From a phage, in the sequence record QB031382.1: a DNA stretch of 64,000 nt; one strand, written 5' to 3'. A program made the translations under genes and the position numbers. Every line of letters begins with the position of its first letter. Position 1 is the stretch's first letter. The notes beneath the pieces are model-generated. The model made no database searches, was not told the DNA's origin, and worked only from the letters and a program-made list of their open reading frames with translations. Shown here piece by piece: positions 5,902 through 62,214 of this stretch.

Positions 5902-5932
5902 ATACTCATAAACTAACAGAGAGCGATGTATT

Positions 5933-6124
5933 ATGGTAATTTTTAACCGGGATGGTATCATAGTTAGACAGCACCCGTTCCTTGAATACTATCAAATTGA
6001 GCAATGGTGCTACGGGGATTGCAGTCACTCCTATGGGCAAAGTTGGGGATATCGCACAGTTTTTGAATCAACAGACCTTGACAAAGTAAGACAGAAAGTT
6101 TTAGAACTTATTAACAACAAGTGA
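5933..6124 (+). CDS. hypothetical protein
   Basis: Track ORF downstream of promoter. Confidence 0.5.
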   Translation: MVIFNRDGIIVRQHPFLEYYQIEQWCYGDCSHSYGQSWGYRTVFESTDLDKVRQKVLELINNK

Positions 6125-15982: not shown

Positions 15983-16011
15983 GGGAGACAATCACCGGGG
16001 GTGCCCGTTAT
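15983..16011. repeat. 29-bp inverted-repeat arm B, partner at 7875..7903
   Basis: GGGAGACAATCACCGGGGGTGCCCGTTAT, exact reverse complement of arm A. Confidence 0.85.
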
Positions 16012-16030
16012 ATAAAAACTATAAAAACAG

Positions 16031-16059
16031 TTGACATCTGCCAGGTGGTTAGGTAACAT
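16031..16059 (+). promoter_or_regulatory. sigma70-like promoter
   Basis: TTGACA 16031-16036, 17-bp spacer, TAACAT 16054-16059. Confidence 0.5.
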
Positions 16060-16113
16060 TTATCTTGAAGGGGCAAAAGTGCCCACACAACAACCAGAAG
16101 AGAGGAAAACATT

Positions 16114-16386
16114 ATGTCAAGCTGGATTAATCAAAAAGTTGAATCACGTTTTAATGCTATCTGGGATCTCATCGAAAAAGAGGACGGAACATCAAGCCCT
16201 TACCTCAATAATCTTGAATTCCATTTTGTGGAAGCGATGAACGCAGAACATGATCACAAAGGTGGCGCGGATGAGTTCGCTCAAGGGTATGGCTTCAACA
16301 ATGCCAACGAAATGATTGAAGCGGTTGTACTTCAGGCTGAGGAAGATTATCAATTAAAAACACTTGAATTTTGCCGCCGTAAGTAA
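16114..16386 (+). CDS. hypothetical protein
   Basis: Track ORF; RBS AGAGGAAAA upstream. Confidence 0.55.
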   Translation: MSSWINQKVESRFNAIWDLIEKEDGTSSPYLNNLEFHFVEAMNAEHDHKGGADEFAQGYGFNNANEMIEAVVLQAEEDYQLKTLEFCRRK

Positions 16387-16447
16387 TAAGATAATGACAC
16401 GGGCCAAAAGGCCCACCAAACCAGAACCCCATAAAGAGGAAAACATC

Positions 16448-16711
16448 ATGAAACGCCTTGATCAGCTCAAACTAGTTCAGTACATGGCCTACAAAGTTAT
16501 TGAAGTCCAAAAAGGTAGTAAAAAGGAGGTTTGCGAGAAAGCGTATAAGATCTTTACTCGTAAAAAAGATGATTGGATGTTACGCCAGACCAAAAAGGCT
16601 GATATCCTGGGGTACCTGGAAGAAGAGATCCGGCTTGAAGAGCAAGAAGAGATCCGCCGCAGTGAGGCAGATTATCAGGCAGCTTGGGAAAGCTGGATGA
16701 GAAACAAATAA
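16448..16711 (+). CDS. hypothetical protein
   Basis: Track ORF 16364..16711 trimmed to ATG 16448 after AAGAGGAAAA. Confidence 0.5.
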   Translation: MKRLDQLKLVQYMAYKVIEVQKGSKKEVCEKAYKIFTRKKDDWMLRQTKKADILGYLEEEIRLEEQEEIRRSEADYQAAWESWMRNK

Positions 16712-16723
16712 TAAACATTATCA

Positions 16724-16752
16724 AGGGGCTTAGGCCCCTTTCTTTTTGTTTG
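16724..16752 (+). terminator. rho-independent terminator, end of + block
   Basis: AGGGGC-TTAG-GCCCCT hairpin followed by TTCTTTTTGTTTG. Confidence 0.8.
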
Positions 16753-17364
16753 CTCTTTTCCTACCATAAACGGCCCTACCTGGCAAGTGGAATAATTGAC
16801 GAGCCATTAATCCCGCACACTGTACAAATATACATATAAAATAACTATTGCATAATCTTTCATCTTGTGGTAGCAGGGTCATTTTTACACGTTTTTCCTT
16901 CCAAAAATGCACGTAATGCAGCTATTGCACAAAATTTAACCTGATGCACATTTTCAGCATACTGTCAACAATTAAAAACCCTTATAAATCATACACTTAC
17001 ACAAACCAAAAAGCGTGTCCTACGTGAAAAATCGGGTGTAACTATAGCCGACAGATCTCAGAATCCACGTACGATCACCATTCTATAGCCTGCTAAGTAT
17101 TTATTCCAACCACAGAATAACGGAATAGTCAATACCTGTACAAAATAATTATTCGTATAAACTGCATAACATAAATTTTCTCATGTGTAAACATTTTTCG
17201 TAAACAGTCCGAAATTGTCACGATAGGTTACTATAATCAGAGAAATCTTTAGTCGTCTAATGTTTACTGCACATAACTATACTGACTGGAATCATTAGAT
17301 GACTAAGAGAAAGATAAGAAATAGTTAACAATGTAATTGTTTTACCTGTAACAATAAGGCAACT

Positions 17365-17642
17365 ATGCAAACGAATGTCATGGCGCGACGGAGTCGCGAC
17401 ATAATATAAAAGCAGTAACCATCACCCCCGTGATAGTTTATCTGCAAACTATTGATCAGATCATAGTTGCCTTAGATTTAGTTAATCATGACATAATAAG
17501 CAAGGCAACTATAGATCTGATAATAGTTGCCCTGCTTTTATATTATGTCATATATTATTAACCTGTTAATTGTCAGCTTATTGGCTGTTAGCTTGTCAAT
17601 TGTTAACTTGTTAATTGTTATCATGCAAACGAATGTCATGGC
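17365..17642. repeat. composite repeat element: 20-bp direct repeats flanking an 18-bp inverted-repeat pair
   Basis: ATGCAAACGAATGTCATGGC at 17365-17384 and 17623-17642; GACATAATATAAAAGCAG 17398-17415 is the reverse complement of 17532-17549; interior has repeated GGCAACTAT/ATAGTTGCC and a TGATCAGATCA palindrome. Confidence 0.8.
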
Positions 17643-17653
17643 TTATCATCTTT

Positions 17654-17765
17654 GTGTAAACTGTCAGGGTGTAGACTATTCAAGGTGTAAATTATTCAGA
17701 TGCAAACTATCCAGGCGTAAACAGTCTATGCGGGAACAATCTGCACGTGAACAATGAAACATGAA
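17654..17765. repeat. degenerate tandem array, about 16-bp period, about 7 units
   Basis: GTGTAAACTGTCAGG / GTGTAGACTATTCAAG / GTGTAAATTATTCAGA / TGCAAACTATCCAGGC and further units. Confidence 0.55.
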
Positions 17766-19254
17766 ATAATAACAGTCGTTATTGTATCGAAAGTGTATAA
17801 GGTGTCAGATTATGGCATATTGTGTGACATTGTGTCAGACAAGTTTTTCTCCTCTTTGTCAAGTGCTGCATGTAAAATTTACAAACTGGTATGGTAGCAT
17901 TTTTGCGGCCCTGTTTACATTCAGGAGTGTATGTATAACCCTTGTTGTGTGGGCGTTTAGACGTCTGGACGGTCAGAAGTCTGCAGGTTAATATCTAATC
18001 TATTGGTCGCTAACTATATCCCCACAAATAATAAGAAATGCAATTGTTATATGCGTAAACAGTAACTCATGTTATCAATCCCTGTATGTATCGCCAGTGG
18101 TGCGCATAATGGGTATTATGTTAAATTGCCCGTAATGATAACGATTCTCACAATGATAGGTATTCTCATTCACCCGCCCAGGATAGGTTGCAAATGTTGT
18201 GCCACTGTGTGAACGGCCTCGCCTATTAATTTGCCTCACTGCCCCGATATTTGAGAATTATTATAAGAATGAGAAGTATTCCCATTTCGTCCGCCTGGCA
18301 GCACTCCTGTAGGACAAGCACAAAATCGTGGCATAACTGTACCTGTTCAGATATTTCTGGCTGACTCTTCAGGTCTGTGTGGGAAAAGCCAACCTCTCCG
18401 GCGGCGGGGAGTGGGTCAATTAAAAAATTTACGTGGTGTATGAAGCGCTCTTCAGGTAAGGCAGGTATTATGGGATGAATCACTCTTCAGGTGATGATAT
18501 TTGTAGGTGTGATATTTGCTGGAAAGCCAGATATGACGGGACTCCCGGCGGGGCAGGGGTAGTACAGACAGGGAAAATGTGGAGAATGTGGTGGGTAAAT
18601 TGATCAAGCAGGTAGAGTATGGAATATGTTACAGGTATGTTAAATATGGAGGTAAGATATTTGTAAGATTTGTGTGTAAAATCAAAGACTTAAGTAGTGT
18701 TGTGGTATTTTCTATAAATAATTCAAGTTTAATAGGGAATATTTGCCTCTATCCACTTTGTATGGTAACTATATTCTAATTGAATTGGTTTACAAGTGTA
18801 TATAAAGTATACAAATTAAAGATACAAGAAACCCCCCTCCCCCTTCGGCTACCATTCACCTTTTCCTCTGACTGGTACTTAAACACTTATTCAGACTCTT
18901 CAGGTTATCACTCATATATCATATGGCAGTGACTGGTGTCCTCCGGCCCCTCTTTCGTCACCCGTCCGCTTCGCCATGCTAATGCCATAGCTAACTGTTC
19001 GGTTGTTCACCCTGTTCACTCAGGTGTATCTCCATACCCCTTCAAACCGAAGAGAACAGAAAACCCGAATTACTCGGTAAAAGAAAAGAGAAGAACTTAA
19101 TTTTATCAGGATAGGCAAGAATGTCAAGGCATGACTGCTCACTAAACAAGCAAACAGTCATGTGTGGGAGGTAAGTGATTGTGGTGGTAGGAAATTTAGT
19201 TGAAAGATGTGTTATAGGTGCTTCCAGCACTTTAGCCTGGCAGCTAATTGTGTG

Positions 19255-19470
19255 TCAGTCCAGCGGTTCATCCTCTACTTCACTGAAATCAATGTTCAGG
19301 GTCTCTTCCCAACCATCGATCTCAGCACAAGAGTGGAGTTCTTTAGGGTTTACTCCCAAAGCCTCAGCAACAGAGTCTATATTTAACACCTCTGGCAGGT
19401 ATGATTCATCGAATTCAAGGTAAATCAGGCCACGAGTGTTGTCAGCTCCACCAAATATTTCTATCTTCAT
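19255..19470 (-). CDS. hypothetical acidic protein
   Basis: Track ORF, last gene of minus-strand array. Confidence 0.5.
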   Translation of the reverse strand: MKIEIFGGADNTRGLIYLEFDESYLPEVLNIDSVAEALGVNPKELHSCAEIDGWEETLNIDFSEVEDEPLD

Positions 19471-19590
19471 AAAATCTCCTCTGGAAATGAGAGTGTGAAC
19501 AGGGTTATACGTTCCAATGCGCAGGAATTTATATACGTTTGCCTCTTCAGGCCATGCTTTAGCATGATAAACTTATGTGGGCTCGGTGCT

Positions 19591-19893
19591 TCATAGTCTG
19601 CCACCTCTGAACTCTTCGTGCTCGGGCAGGATAGAGAACCAGATGTCTAAGATGTCTTCCCACGTCAGGTCATCAGCCTCAGGGTCTAAGTTTTCCTCTA
19701 CGGTCACTTCTTCAGATGTCTCTTCAGATGCATGTGTGTTGGTCATGTTCCACCCGTTAGTATTCCGGCAACAGCCGCTATGGACGTAATGATCATCAGG
19801 ATCACCACTAAAACTTCGGACAATGTTTTCATTGCGTATTCCATATTCTTCAAACGATGTGAGGATACTATCACAGGAGCGGTAATGTGTCAA
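19591..19893 (-). CDS. hypothetical acidic protein
   Basis: Track ORF in minus-strand array. Confidence 0.5.
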   Translation of the reverse strand: MTHYRSCDSILTSFEEYGIRNENIVRSFSGDPDDHYVHSGCCRNTNGWNMTNTHASEETSEEVTVEENLDPEADDLTWEDILDIWFSILPEHEEFRGGRL

Positions 19894-20049
19894 CAGAAAC
19901 GCCGCGAGGGTTGGTTAAAATCCGAGCGTATGGTGATTTGGGTCAAAACGGACGTGCGTTCTCGCTACGCTCGAAATAGAGAGTTGTTTACAGGCCGCCC
20001 TTAAACGCTCTGTAATAAGATTATCCATCTAAGGTATGCAATCGTGCAC

Positions 20050-20080
20050 CAGATAAAGAAAAGGACGCCACAGAGCGTCC
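20050..20080 (-). terminator. rho-independent terminator
   Basis: GGACGC-CACAGA-GCGTCC hairpin; minus-strand transcript continues UUUUCUUUAUCU. Confidence 0.65.
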
Positions 20081-20105
20081 TAGGTGCCTTAAATTTGATA
20101 TTTTG

Positions 20106-20417
20106 CTATACCCATGAGGGCTTGTCCAGGTTGGAGTAACTGAAAGGGGTCAAAAGGTGACTGTCAAAATCTTTCAAACTGTCCAGATCTTTTTCCTCGT
20201 CCTGACACCATCTGTGTCTACATTTATTGTTGTAGTGCATGGAATGCATAGCGTTCTGCAACTTAATAGGCACAAGTGATTCAGGAGTAGATAGAATTGT
20301 TGGGTATGCCAGAACTATCTCAAACAATGGAAACACATCGAAACTAAAGTCTACCTCTGCAGAGGTTGATGGCATATAGGAGTATTTAGCCGCCCTTGTA
20401 GACATAATCCACCTCAC
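20106..20417 (-). CDS. hypothetical protein
   Basis: Track ORF. Confidence 0.5.
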   Translation of the reverse strand: MRWIMSTRAAKYSYMPSTSAEVDFSFDVFPLFEIVLAYPTILSTPESLVPIKLQNAMHSMHYNNKCRHRWCQDEEKDLDSLKDFDSHLLTPFSYSNLDKPSWV

Positions 20418-20644
20418 ACAGGTTTGATAATACCTTTACCGAATAACTCTTCGTATCTAATCTTATCCGGATCCCACTCCTGGATAATTTCGAAGACAAT
20501 ATCTAACCCAGGGATAATCACTTCTCCAGTATCAAGTTTGGCAAGAACAAAACCAGAAGGCTGAATGGTTTCCCAGTTGCGACGATTGGAATAGAAGACC
20601 TCAAAAATATCACCGACCTCGATCTGTTGATCAAGATGGTTCAA
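20414..20644 (-). CDS. hypothetical protein
   Basis: Track ORF; 4-nt overlap with downstream gene. Confidence 0.5.
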   Translation of the reverse strand: MNHLDQQIEVGDIFEVFYSNRRNWETIQPSGFVLAKLDTGEVIIPGLDIVFEIIQEWDPDKIRYEELFGKGIIKPV

Positions 20645-35015: not shown

Positions 35016-36008
35016 TCAGCAACCACAACTTCCGTAGTGCTTAACCCGTTCTATAACCTCCGCTTGCTTACCTTTATTGTAAGGACGGGAGTTTGGACTG
35101 GACAGATACCCGGATACACGTCTAATCACACTGATCGTTCCCTCTTCATGGTTTCCACACTCTGGGCATACAAAGCCTTTAGCTGTTGCACTGAACTCAC
35201 CAGAGAATCCACACTTAAGACATTTATCCACAGGCTGGTTAATACCAAAATACATAATGTGTTTATATCCGAAATCAACAAGAGCTTCCAAAGCATCTAA
35301 GTTGTTTTTCAGATTTGGTGTCTCTATGTACCCAATGTTGCCACCAGAGGAGATCATAGCAAAACCTTCCTCATACTTCCACTTATCAAAAGGCGAGCTA
35401 TTGATCCATACTGGCTGATGGAAACTGTTGGTGAGGTATTCATGCTCGTGCTTCAACACTTCTGGGTATTCACGATCCAGACAGGTTGCAGCTTTATAGC
35501 ATAAACTCTCAGAAGGTGTGCCGTACAAGCTAAATGCTAGTCCACTTTCCTTCTTGTATCGCTCACAAGCATCTTTCATGTGCTGAAGGATTCCAAGAGC
35601 TAAAGCCTTGTCACCCTCTCTGCCCAAAATCTGACAGGTTTCATACACACCAATATACCCAATACTGATGGAAGCGTACCCGTCATAGAAGAGTTTATCG
35701 ATACTCTCTTCAGGATCCAGGCGAGCAAGAGCTCCTTCACACCACATGATAGGGTTATGCCCTGCCTTTGTTCCTTTTAGACGGTTAACTCTTACAAGGT
35801 GAGCCTCATATGCCAAATCCAAATATTCGTCAAGAACTGCAAAGAAATCAACACCTTCCGTTTTAGCTTTTGCCGCAATCATTGGTAGGTTAAGGCTAAC
35901 AACACCCAAGTTGAATCTGCCAAGGTATTTCTCCTCGCCTGTTACAGGATCGCTATATTTCGATAAGAAACTTCTACACATTATGTTCAAGGTGGTTCGC
36001 AAGGCCAC
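35016..36008 (-). CDS. nrdD: anaerobic ribonucleotide reductase, C-terminal part
   Basis: Ends CLKCGF...CPECG...RRVSGYL (Zn site plus glycyl-radical RxSGY motif); track start is a GTG, true 5-prime boundary unknown. Confidence 0.75.
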   Translation of the reverse strand: MALRTTLNIMCRSFLSKYSDPVTGEEKYLGRFNLGVVSLNLPMIAAKAKTEGVDFFAVLDEYLDLAYEAHLVRVNRLKGTKAGHNPIMWCEGALARLDPEESIDKLFYDGYASISIGYIGVYETCQILGREGDKALALGILQHMKDACERYKKESGLAFSLYGTPSESLCYKAATCLDREYPEVLKHEHEYLTNSFHQPVWINSSPFDKWKYEEGFAMISSGGNIGYIETPNLKNNLDALEALVDFGYKHIMYFGINQPVDKCLKCGFSGEFSATAKGFVCPECGNHEEGTISVIRRVSGYLSSPNSRPYNKGKQAEVIERVKHYGSCGC

Positions 36009-36128
36009 CCCCGCACCATTACGTGCTGCTGCATGTCCCCATGCAGATCAGACTATATCTTCACACTTAGTGTGTCTACCATTTCGAGTGTCATCAGCTT
36101 ACACCCTACACCGCTACATTCATCACGG

Positions 36129-36638
36129 TTAGTCGTTAGGCATTTCGTAACAGAACTCGTAATCATAGTTATTAGGTGCACCACGTTTCAGGATAGCAGA
36201 TATTCTTTTTCTATCTATTCCTAAAACATCAGCACAACATCTCAGACTCTTAAAGTGAATAACCACACCAGTTAATTTGTGGGTGGCTTTCACCCCGTGA
36301 CATCTTGTGTAAAAAGCATAACAGTTGTTGTCGTATCCTTCTTGAGTATTGTCTGGGCAAGCTCCCCACTCAAGGTTGTATACGCTGTTATCTTTCCTGT
36401 TGTCACCTTTGTGCTTAACATATGGTAAATTGTCTGGATTTGGTAAAAACGCTTCAGCAACAAGTCTGTGAACCCTTAGGCAAACAGTCTTTTTGTTCTT
36501 GCGTATCCTGACAAGACGGTAACCTGTGTTTATCTCTTCCCACGAATGAATAATTCTTTCATTTTCGTATCGGGTGCAATAAACATTGCCCATCTCGTCA
36601 ATTTCATAACCTTCAAAATCACGAATTTGTTTTCTCAT
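36129..36638 (-). CDS. HNH homing endonuclease inserted in nrdD
   Basis: Track ORF 36129..36680 trimmed to ATG 36638 after AGAGGAG; GYEIDEMGNVY..RLVAEAF..HKGDNRKDNSVYNLEW resembles HNH homing endonucleases. Confidence 0.65.
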   Translation of the reverse strand: MRKQIRDFEGYEIDEMGNVYCTRYENERIIHSWEEINTGYRLVRIRKNKKTVCLRVHRLVAEAFLPNPDNLPYVKHKGDNRKDNSVYNLEWGACPDNTQEGYDNNCYAFYTRCHGVKATHKLTGVVIHFKSLRCCADVLGIDRKRISAILKRGAPNNYDYEFCYEMPND

Positions 36639-36731
36639 TTCAGGACTCCTCTTAGTCAGGAGTTCTGTTACGTTTAGCACGGGATTGTCCGTTCTGGAGT
36701 TTCCCCGTTTAGATAGATTTTACATGAGCAG

Positions 36732-37901
36732 TTATAGTTTACCCATGCTTGTTACTTTGCCGTCTGTTGAACCTGTCACTTTACGATTTAGCGGAACAGA
36801 AACAAAGTCAGGATAAATCCGCTCTGCAGAGCATTCTAAGGCCAATCGTTTCAAATCATAGTTAGGATCCCCAGGGTTCATGTTGACACCCTCCTCTAAG
36901 AAGAACAACACTTTAGGGAACACAGGTGTGATCCGTTCTTCACCAAGACCCATTTTGTGAACTTTCAAGTAGTTTTTGGTAATCATTCTACCAAAGACCG
37001 AAGTATCCAGCCCTAAACTTAATGTGATGAATGGGGTTTGCCCGTTGACAGAAGTTAACGTATTGATTTGGTAGAGCAAAGTTTGCATACTATCAAACAC
37101 GTCTTTATCTGTCATTTGCATTGCAACAGTCTCAGCATCTGGCAACCAATGTTCCTGACAAAATTTAAGGTTCTTCTCATAAGTTGCTTCAGCATACTGT
37201 GCCAAATAATGATCAATATGACTCATGGTCTGACCGCCATATTGAGCACTAGCTACTGCACTAGAGATTTGGCTAAGGATTGTTGTTGCAACCCCTATTG
37301 ACTTCGGCTTACTGACATGGGCGTTGCCAATGTTGAATCCGTTTTCCAGCATATCCGGATAATTTACCAAACAACAGTTTGTTAACGGACTGATCAGGTA
37401 GTCAAGATCATGCACATGGATGAAGCCTTTGTTGTGCTCTTCAGAGACACGGTCTGGCAGGATCTGTGTTGATGCAAGATGTTTGCTAAGGATGCCTGCA
37501 AGCAGGTCACGATGAGTATGCACATGATTAGTAGGCTTATTTGCGTTTTCTTTTGTAAATTCATCACAAGTACGATCCAAGAATCCGCTAATATCTGCAA
37601 GCAGTTTTCCACCTGCCTCTCTGTTATTATCTCTTGTCTGTCTATACTGGATGTATCCTCTGGCTGCACATTTTAAACCCATATCCATAAGAGCATCTTC
37701 AACAAGGATATGGATATTTTTTACAGAGATCGTGCACTGGTCGGTTGGCAGATTGTTGGCAACAACTTCATTAACCGCGCAGGCAATCCGGTAAGCTTCT
37801 TCTTCAGTATGTCCAGACTCAAGTAAGGCGGACTCTGCCGCCTTGATCACCTTAATTCCGTTATAAAACTCTTCTCTACCGTCCCGTTTTACAACTTTCA
37901 C
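36732..37901 (-). CDS. nrdD: anaerobic ribonucleotide reductase, N-terminal part
   Basis: N-terminal ATP-cone-like VKRDGREEFYNGIKV; frame closes at TAA 36732-36734 just before the HNH insertion. Confidence 0.7.
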   Translation of the reverse strand: MKVVKRDGREEFYNGIKVIKAAESALLESGHTEEEAYRIACAVNEVVANNLPTDQCTISVKNIHILVEDALMDMGLKCAARGYIQYRQTRDNNREAGGKLLADISGFLDRTCDEFTKENANKPTNHVHTHRDLLAGILSKHLASTQILPDRVSEEHNKGFIHVHDLDYLISPLTNCCLVNYPDMLENGFNIGNAHVSKPKSIGVATTILSQISSAVASAQYGGQTMSHIDHYLAQYAEATYEKNLKFCQEHWLPDAETVAMQMTDKDVFDSMQTLLYQINTLTSVNGQTPFITLSLGLDTSVFGRMITKNYLKVHKMGLGEERITPVFPKVLFFLEEGVNMNPGDPNYDLKRLALECSAERIYPDFVSVPLNRKVTGSTDGKVTSMGKL

Positions 37902-59122: not shown

Positions 59123-59197
59123 ACCAGTAAAAACTTAAATATCTGTACTATAAAGGTTCGTATGTTTTATGTTCACTTTGGAGCTAAGATTATTAAC

Positions 59198-59257
59198 TGT
59201 CCGCCACGCGGACACATCTGCCCGTAATACGGACACTAACTGTCCGCAATACGGACA
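59198..59257. promoter_or_regulatory. array of palindromic operator-like sites
   Basis: TGTCCGC-CAC-GCGGACA 59198-59214, TGTCCG-CAATA-CGGACA 59241-59257, partial site between, centres about 21 bp apart. Confidence 0.65.
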
Positions 59258-59762
59258 CATAAAGAATATAACTAAAATAACTAAATAATAAAAATAAAAG
59301 ATCTAGTACTTATGGTACTAAAGTACATATACTTAACTTATGTAGAATATACTAGATCCTAAGTACCATGTTTTAAATTTATTACTTATTATGGGTAGTG
59401 TCGGCCCCTCATTGGCACTCGCCTACGAGGGGGCGAGATGCCGGGCCTCCATAGTGCACACAATAACAGGAGTGCATACATGCAGGACTGTTAACATGTG
59501 TGGGAGCGAAGCGATAGCGCAGGCCAAAGGCCGAGCACTAATGTGGACCACCGACGAAAGCTTGCCAGCGCCGTAAGGAGTCGGTTGAGAGACTCCCGCG
59601 CGAGTTTGGTTAAAGTTTATGTGTGGAAACGGACAAGAAGGCTCCTAAATCTCACCACAGCTGTGTAAACTCTACCAAGTAAGGCAATCGCACCAGTTTG
59701 ATAGAAAAGCTCGTTACAAAGCGATACAGTGAGTTTTTCTATAACTTGAAGAGGAGGCAGCT

Positions 59763-62110: not shown

Positions 62111-62207
62111 GCTAGGTAAGCCCTTTGGCAAGGGCGAGGATTTTTAATCCTGAAAATAGACGCGGTAGTCGTTGAATACATAGGTGGTTCGATTCCATCA
62201 CCTAGCA
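62111..62207 (+). tRNA. atypical tRNA-like gene, identity unresolved
   Basis: Perfect acceptor GCTAGGT/ACCTAGC, D-arm and T-arm (TTCGATT), but the anticodon region is a 6-bp hairpin AGGATT/AATCCT with UUU loop and about 30 extra nt; 97 nt. Confidence 0.4.
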
Positions 62208-62214
62208 CCTTTTT

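Follow-up and report, generated by a model that had tools for sequence, protein, structure and literature searches.

A short-repeat array of protein-binding type beside the genome end of a vequintavirus

What does a run of short, imperfect direct repeats do in a part of a phage genome that holds no convincing gene? The question is raised by a tandem array in the DNA of a Vequintavirus, an rV5-like Escherichia coli myovirus with a genome of ~137 kb, of which a stretch of 64,000 nucleotides (record QB031382.1; hereafter, the window) was analysed. As described below, this is a short-repeat array of protein-binding type standing beside the end of the phage genome; the kind is known, and this instance is undescribed in the vequintavirus literature searched, where we found no account of the array nor any function for the region. 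Our preferred reading, to which we give a probability of roughly 0.4, is that a sequence-specific protein binds the repeats and acts at the concatemer junction, both the binding and the role being what we infer.

The repeat array and the genome end

The array consists of seven head-to-tail, co-oriented units with the core GTRAAC(W)RT (Table 1). Its first part, 17654-17722, was recovered by Tandem Repeats Finder (TRF) with a period of 15, 4.5 copies, 73% matches, a score of 61 and the consensus GTGTAAACTATTCAAG, and reading by eye extended it to seven units ending at 17761. About seven imperfect consecutive units had also been counted in a first-pass annotation of this DNA, which carried the interval on to 17765; the last four nucleotides (17762-17765) are flank of a hairpin and lie outside any unit. 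The same annotation had proposed a period of ~16 bp, which turned out to be mostly 15 bp and sometimes 16, and had named AACTAT as the shared core, which is only one variant of the 3' half of the actual core, one that U4 has in full and U2 nearly. The tandem arrangement itself held firm: the self-identity of 17654-17765 at lag 15 was 0.557, against a background of ~0.25, and over the lags 5-39 none of 5000 dinucleotide-preserving shuffles, the comparison by which the periodicity was to be judged, came up to it. The periodicity of the array is real. Moreover, only five TRF arrays with a score of at least 50 occur in the 64-kb window, three of them within 17586-18518.

Database records covering this region leave it unannotated or give it automatic 'repeat_region' or 'terminator' labels. 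A mechanical open reading frame (ORF) of 76 amino acids (aa) with a TTG start, 17527-17757, runs through the repeats and was rejected on account of the 16-, 31- and ~90-nt indels found in relatives and the lack of a consistent gene annotation. The array is non-coding, since indels of unit size disrupt any reading frame. With regard to the core, GTRAACWRT has 12 matches in the window, where 5.3 ± 2.3 were expected and 0 of 100 shuffles attained 12; five of them fall at 17200-18063, all on the + strand, and the other seven are scattered. In the half of the genome covered here, clustering of the motif is confined to the terminal region, and its distribution is not that of a genome-wide operator.

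Table 1. Coordinates of the array, its units and the other elements of the junction region in the window.
Feature	Coordinates	Strand	Remarks
Tandem array, 7 head-to-tail co-oriented units of 15-16 bp, core GTRAAC(W)RT	17654-17761	+	Read from sequence; TRF; lag-15 shuffle test; 22 vequintavirus sequences
Unit U1, GTGTAAACTGTCAGG	17654-17668		
Unit U2, GTGTAGACTATTCAAG	17669-17684		
Unit U3, GTGTAAATTATTCAGA	17685-17700		
Unit U4, TGCAAACTATCCAGG	17701-17715		
Unit U5, CGTAAACAGTCTATG	17716-17730		
Unit U6, CGGGAACAATCTGCA	17731-17745		
Unit U7, CGTGAACAATGAAACA	17746-17761		
Direct terminal repeat (DTR), 458 bp	17838-18295	-	Single copy in the window; mapped from fixed-end records
Solitary core GTAAACAGT	17200-17208	+	Same orientation as the array, 450 bp upstream of it
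Solitary core GTAAACAGT inside DTR	18055-18063	+	Within a 26-nt stretch 73% identical to U4-U5 (repeat family D6)
20-bp box ATGCAAACGAATGTCATGGC	17623-17642	+	Second copy of an exact direct repeat, first copy at 17365-17384 (repeat family D7)
Hairpin/palindrome ATAATAAC-AGTC-GTTATTGT	17766-17785		Separates the array from the second repeat block; stem in both folds
Second degenerate repeat block: GTGTATAAG, GTGTCAGA, GTGTGACA, GTGTCAGA	17793-17839	+	Ends at the DTR boundary, GTGTCA/GACAAG (slash, boundary)
CTCTTCAGG repeats	18365, 18448, 18483 (18365-18491); fourth at 18896	+	Right-unique side of the DTR (repeat family D3); longer form (G/C)ACTCTTCAGGT at all four positions
TTGTTAA/TTGTCAA repeats (periods of 7 and 15 bp) in an AT-rich tract	17586-17620	+	TRF; directly 5' of the 20-bp box
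Perfect 18-bp inverted repeat GACATAATATAAAAGCAG / CTGCTTTTATATTATGTC	17398-17415 / 17532-17549		Encloses 17447-17540

The array lies inside a gap of ~2.5 kb where two gene blocks converge. To the left, small + strand genes end at 16711 and are followed by a terminator (16723-16740); to the right, minus-strand genes end at 19255. About 120 phage records match the array region at 82-96% identity, and the nucleotide matches are to Vequintavirus records, with none outside.

It is the records with defined ends that reveal where in the phage chromosome this gap stands. Published records run along the minus strand of the window, and the physical left end of virion DNA corresponds to window position 18295 and the right end to 17838. 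In this regard, positions 1-459 of ECP2309 (PP464953) are identical to its positions 136405-136863 and map to 18295-17838 of the window, and the Gotham record has an annotated repeat_region at 1-459. Fixed ends and direct terminal repeats of 458-459 bp have been described for vequintaviruses (PMC7471380; PMC6563267). The 458-bp repeat was found full-length, at 90-97% identity, in 118 of the 120 records; it is present at both ends in five of them, and two further records start or stop exactly at its boundary. Because a single copy of the DTR sits internally, the window reads through a junction of concatemer type. Most of the GenBank relatives were opened elsewhere than at the physical ends, so that their coordinates mask the junction.

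In these terms the array, whose distance from the physical left end is 531-642 bp, belongs to the left-unique DNA. Some 73-76 bp separate it from the inner boundary of the DTR (17837/17838), and its repeated sites, which span 76-184 bp from the position of the right-end cut, all lie within ~200 bp of the terminase cut and on one side of it only.

Conservation across the genus

Twenty-two segments (the window, 19 GenBank records and 2 IMG/VR contigs, out of ~120 related genomes) were compared from the conserved 20-bp box ATGCAAACGAATGKCATGGC to the boundary sequence GACAAGTTTTTCTCC; a scan of IMG/VR with the 20-bp box returned two contigs only. The same co-oriented core was found at the same position in 22 of 22 sequences, flanked in all of them by the invariant 20-bp box and by the invariant boundary TGTCA/GACAAGTTTTTC, where the slash marks the DTR limit. 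Cores start 15 bp apart in 56 cases and 16 bp apart in 25, with six double spacings where one unit had degenerated.

Such regularity coexists with a wide variation in the number of units, which goes from 1 to about 10. A single one is retained by the natural isolates bov11CS3, CM1 and navn, slur16, IMGVR1 and JLBYU08 carry about 9-10, and even within the Vequintavirus slur16 species ~9 units (slur16) were found against one (bov11CS3). The spacers are unrelated between three clades (CAGGGT, CCAGGC and CTATGC in the first; TAGCTAT and TAAGCAT in the second; CAATCAT and CAGGAAT in the third), while the core persists in all three. The units were located by a loose regular expression, which makes the table of information content partly circular; this does not apply to positions -2/-1, to the choice among the permitted letters or to the spacing, none of which that expression imposed. 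Moreover, in an unbiased count of 6-mers GTAAAC or TGTAAA ranked first in each of the three clades independently.

A MAFFT alignment of 11 genomes gave an equivalent picture, with the 20-bp box, the last unit together with the hairpin, and the DTR boundary all invariant, and with indels of the array that are multiples of the unit: 31 nt more in the window, 15 nt fewer in APCEc02 and EduardK, and about five units fewer in bov11CS3 and CM1. As judged from these sequences, the pattern of conservation points to selection on a recognition core, plus gain and loss of units that would proceed by slippage or unequal recombination.

Among the records that match this E. coli Vequintavirus region are 18 labelled 'Campylobacter phage' (MG0656xx, e.g., MG065662 and MG065646); those listed, most of them of 135-143 kb, match the flanks of the array at 86-92% identity and the terminal repeat at ~94%. 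They look mislabelled or derived from contaminating coliphages.

Proposed binding at the genome end and competing explanations

How could such an array act? In the reading that we prefer, one sequence-specific DNA-binding protein, most likely encoded by the phage, would occupy the co-oriented 9-bp cores every 15-16 bp. This period corresponds to ~1.5 helical turns, with adjacent sites on opposite faces of the helix and every second site on the same face. In replicating concatemers the array sits just downstream of the junction repeat, that is, in the unique DNA inside the left DTR copy, and the bound protein would coat it and mark the left-unique side of the junction. With that side marked, the terminase or the apparatus for duplicating the repeat would be more readily placed or oriented for a cut at the DTR boundary ~73 bp off. 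A role at the genome end seems most likely because the position and orientation of the array beside the DTR boundary are invariant and conserved repeats flank the junction on both sides.

Two known systems offer parallels. In phage T7, short-repeat arrays named SRL and SRR flank the 160-bp terminal repetition, as reported by Dunn and Studier in 1983. Re-reading of the T7 sequence showed the terminal repetition at 1-160 and then, at 174-340, an array with the core CCTAAAG and a 13-bp period; looser copies of the same core (CCTAAAG/CCTAAGG) occur on the right flank and also inside the repetition. By analogy, SRL is the closest architectural match to the array described here. Both genomes have short exact direct terminal repeats, and both carry just inside the left one (14 bp in T7, 73 bp here) a tight array of ~10-12 and 7 copies, respectively, where a short core (7 bp and 9 bp) is set within variable spacers, whereas the opposite flank of the repeat bears looser repeats. 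A tandem array of short cores in unique DNA at no more than ~200 bp from the repeat boundary is thus common to the two, and in the vequintaviruses this position is kept in the 22 genomes. However, the cores CCTAAAG and GTRAAC(W)RT are unrelated, which makes the likeness one of analogy and not of homology. In T7 a single core recurs on either flank and within the repeat, whereas here the right flank carries CTCTTCAGG and the DTR a single GTAAACAGT, and the present phage is a 137-kb myovirus with no visible relation to T7 in the region.

The best-understood functional analogue is cosB of phage lambda, although it belongs to a cohesive-end system. Its R3, R2 and R1 sites are the targets of gpNu1, the small terminase subunit. 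Here as there, several elements of ~16 bp stand on a single side of the terminase cut, no farther than ~200 bp from it, where they anchor the terminase in lambda and would anchor it in the vequintavirus. The ends of lambda are cohesive instead of terminal repeats, and its R sites are not arranged head-to-tail, one of them being inverted and an IHF site being interspersed, whereas the surroundings of the array yielded no IHF site. Nor was a small terminase subunit identified within the window.

A more specific and more tentative form of the idea takes the GTRAAC array, the 20-bp box, the hairpin and the TGTCA repeats together as a possible pac-like signal for end recognition, in a large myovirus that, like T7, packages its DNA from direct terminal repeats of short length. 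The 15-16 bp units would then be covered by head-to-tail polymerisation of a dedicated phage protein, and the natural polymorphism in copy number (1 to ~10) would tune the competition for packaging in mixed infections.

Several observations weigh against a role in end recognition. The small proteins encoded next to the array have no recognisable DNA-binding domain, and no binding protein was found. The product of the neighbouring 87-aa gene, called 'FtsK DNA translocase' in some records, was considered as the binder and rejected, with neither an FtsK-gamma nor any DNA-binding domain in Pfam and with a PHROG of unknown function. Since bov11CS3, CM1 and navn retain one unit, multiple copies are non-essential. 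In the distant Vequintavirinae A5-4 and LTH01 the non-coding gap and a big inverted repeat are present, and other short repeats stand where no GTAAAC array was found; as these two phages lack the array despite the gap and the inverted repeat, we consider the GTRAAC array specific to the genus. The analogy with SRL is architectural and not mechanistic, and to our knowledge the function of SRL in T7 was never established. Finally, headful packaging has been claimed for one Vequintavirus from PhageTerm (PMC13211470). This is the one paper that dissents from short exact terminal repeats and fixed ends, and we weigh it below the concordant records with defined ends.

Among the alternatives, that of a replication origin comes first, and it is the one that the first-pass annotation had favoured on seeing periodic binding sites typical of iterons. 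A phage or host initiator would bind the repeats and melt the AT-rich DNA at 17540-17622, and replication would start near the left end. Like the iterons of lambda ori, P1 oriR and P4 ori/crr, the array is made of direct repeats with a conserved core beside an AT-rich tract in non-coding DNA (GC ~0.28-0.33, which is evidence of composition only), and large palindromes lie close to it. However, classical iterons have a period of ~20-22 bp, with at least three direct repeats of ~17-22 bp phased at ~two helical turns, whereas the units here measure 15-16 bp (~1.5 turns) and are down to one in three isolates. No cluster of DnaA boxes or IHF sites lies near the array, the sole matches (18673-18680) being on the far side of the DTR. 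Neither the flanking small genes nor the 20 large ORFs of the window include a cognate initiator of Rep, O or RepA type; the latter encode enzymes of nucleotide and DNA metabolism (among them endonuclease VII, a DNA ligase and the exonuclease subunit of a DNA polymerase) or have other unrelated functions. Moreover, copy number goes from 1 to ~10 within one species, with viable isolates that keep one unit where others reach ~9.

The gene-free region also coincides with the turning point of the cumulative GC skew, which has its maximum there. We attribute this maximum to the convergence of the + and minus-strand gene blocks, and the skew, whose change coincides with the switch in transcription direction, was rejected as evidence for an origin because it is confounded by convergent transcription. 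The rV5 genome paper notes the same coincidence and reached the same conclusion on the skew, the region being merely termed 'non-coding' (PMC3606486). From the original proposal, then, the binding-type array survives, as core and 15-16 bp phase are kept in 22 genomes while spacers and copy number vary, and the iteron label has little in its favour in view of the period, the lack of an initiator in the window and of DnaA/IHF sites near the array, and the single-unit isolates. An origin of iteron type is possible but unsupported, since the array lacks most of the defining features of iterons, and we regard it as unlikely.

That the repeats have no function at all, being a minisatellite generated by slippage or unequal recombination in concatemers with nothing bound to it, would account for the range of copy number, even inside one species, for the unit-sized indels and for the tolerance of a single copy. 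It would account poorly for a core that is kept though the spacers have fully diverged between clades, for a phase fixed at 15-16 bp with uniform orientation, and for the retention of at least one unit in 22 of 22 genomes, the last unit being invariant beside the hairpin. In addition, the solitary core copies nearby share the orientation of the array. We therefore find this explanation decidedly unlikely.

The array might instead bind a nucleoid or regulatory protein of the host, or form a roadblock that would keep converging transcription out of the terminal repeat; the convergence of the two gene blocks at the array and the terminators that flank the gap would fit this. The sequence GTGTAAAC recalls a half-site of the LacI/GalR family, and the TGTCA repeats recall the direct repeats of Pho boxes, being loosely like tandem half-sites (CTGTCAT with an 11-bp period). 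The consensus of the array also resembles the operator galOE (GTGTAAACGATTCCAC). A LacI/GalR-type operator was nevertheless rejected, as conservation is limited to the left half and the units are non-palindromic, unlike operators of that family; as for the roadblock, the first terminator (16723-16740) already stands 900 bp upstream of the array. Neither a host factor nor a roadblock seems at all probable to us.

The weakest candidate, a repeat RNA transcribed from the minus strand that would act as a decoy or antitoxin-like RNA, can draw on minus-strand sigma-70-like sites at 17838-17809 and 17808-17781, a terminator-like hairpin at 17438-17417 on that strand and a minus-strand fold with z = -2.6. 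We judge it very improbable, because inspection by eye showed no conservation of the promoter-like sites in Gotham-like sequences or in bov11CS3, the + strand folds no better than shuffles (z = -0.07), and the units are far shorter than the ~34-40 nt of type III antitoxin repeats, which are transcribed from a conserved promoter and have a toxin as partner. Its model would be the pseudo-ToxI of the Pectobacterium phage phiTE (a Certrevirus), a non-coding tandem repeat that evolves in a phage of the same subfamily, the Vequintavirinae, with quick change of copy number (PMC3475682); its units, however, are transcribed, mimic an antitoxin, measure 36 nt against 15-16 nt here and lie beside tRNA and structural genes instead of at a genome end or in an equivalent region, with no resemblance in sequence or size. 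A known RNA family was rejected, as a scan of 16000-20500 against Rfam gave no match even at E<=1, and so was a conserved structured RNA in view of the turnover of units, despite the minus-strand z value.

The surroundings of the array and their meaning

Other elements of the junction region accompany the array. The part GCAAACGAA of the 20-bp box lies 31 bp (two periods) upstream of the core of U1 and hence in phase with the repeats. The box occurs within 3 mismatches in every relative tested, with T or G at position 14, and all of its positions but one are invariant in the 11-genome alignment; its two copies bracket a palindromic element, and FV3 has one copy only. According to the alignment, the window-like clade and the genomes with a single unit share the hairpin that follows the array; in the Murica-like and Gotham-like segments it could not be made out by eye. 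Between it and the DTR, the block of GTGTCA type varies in copy count among relatives, and APCEc02 and CM1 have enlarged runs of ATGTCA/GTGTCA with a spacing of 8-11 bp.

On the other side of the DTR, CTCTTCAGG is found 3-4 times at conserved offsets from the outer boundary in nearly all of 17 genomes, CM1 having one copy, and this set may be the counterpart of the GTRAAC array on the other flank. Upstream of the array, GC content falls to 0.275-0.338 across 17480-17679, against ~0.43 for the genome. The 18-bp inverted repeat encloses two GGCAACTAT-N10-ATAGTTGCC palindromes that contain GATC sites. A perfect inverted repeat of 16 bp and different sequence (GACACTATAAAACGAG ... CTCGTTTTATAGTGTC, L024 ~5912-6015) occupies the same relative place in A5-4, from which structure, rather than sequence, seems to be conserved.

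Some further features of the window were recorded. Around position 16717, between the 87-aa gene and the non-coding region, ~570 bp are absent relative to ECP2309; the extra DNA of the latter holds a 420-bp gene whose Murica equivalent is annotated 'contains Rel homology domain'. The top TRF score of the window (81) corresponds to 59194-59258, with 3.0 copies of the 22-bp unit TAACTGTCCGCAATACGGACAC and a small palindrome in each. At 62111-62209 (+), within a cluster of six ordinary tRNA genes, ARAGORN predicted a tRNA-like gene of 99 nt whose anticodon has four bases (atcc) and which could be a tRNA with an intron or a long arm, a pseudo-tRNA or a tRNA resembling a frameshift suppressor. An anaerobic ribonucleotide reductase (NrdD-like; 35016-37898, minus strand) is split into an N-terminal half (36732-37898) and a C-terminal half (35016-36005) with an ORF of 183 aa (36129-36680) between them, which suggests an intron or the insertion of a homing endonuclease.

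Vequintaviruses are among the commonest E. coli phage isolates considered for therapy, and the array is a handle on how their genome ends are recognised and cut, which matters for engineering, for start coordinates and for the risk of transduction. Its copy number can be used, moreover, as a marker that separates near-identical isolates. If the parallel with SRL of T7 holds, a genus as well sampled as this one could settle the role of such arrays. Should the pac-like reading be true, the elements described here would be the first defined packaging signal of the Vequintavirinae and would provide a testable function for arrays of the T7 SRL type.

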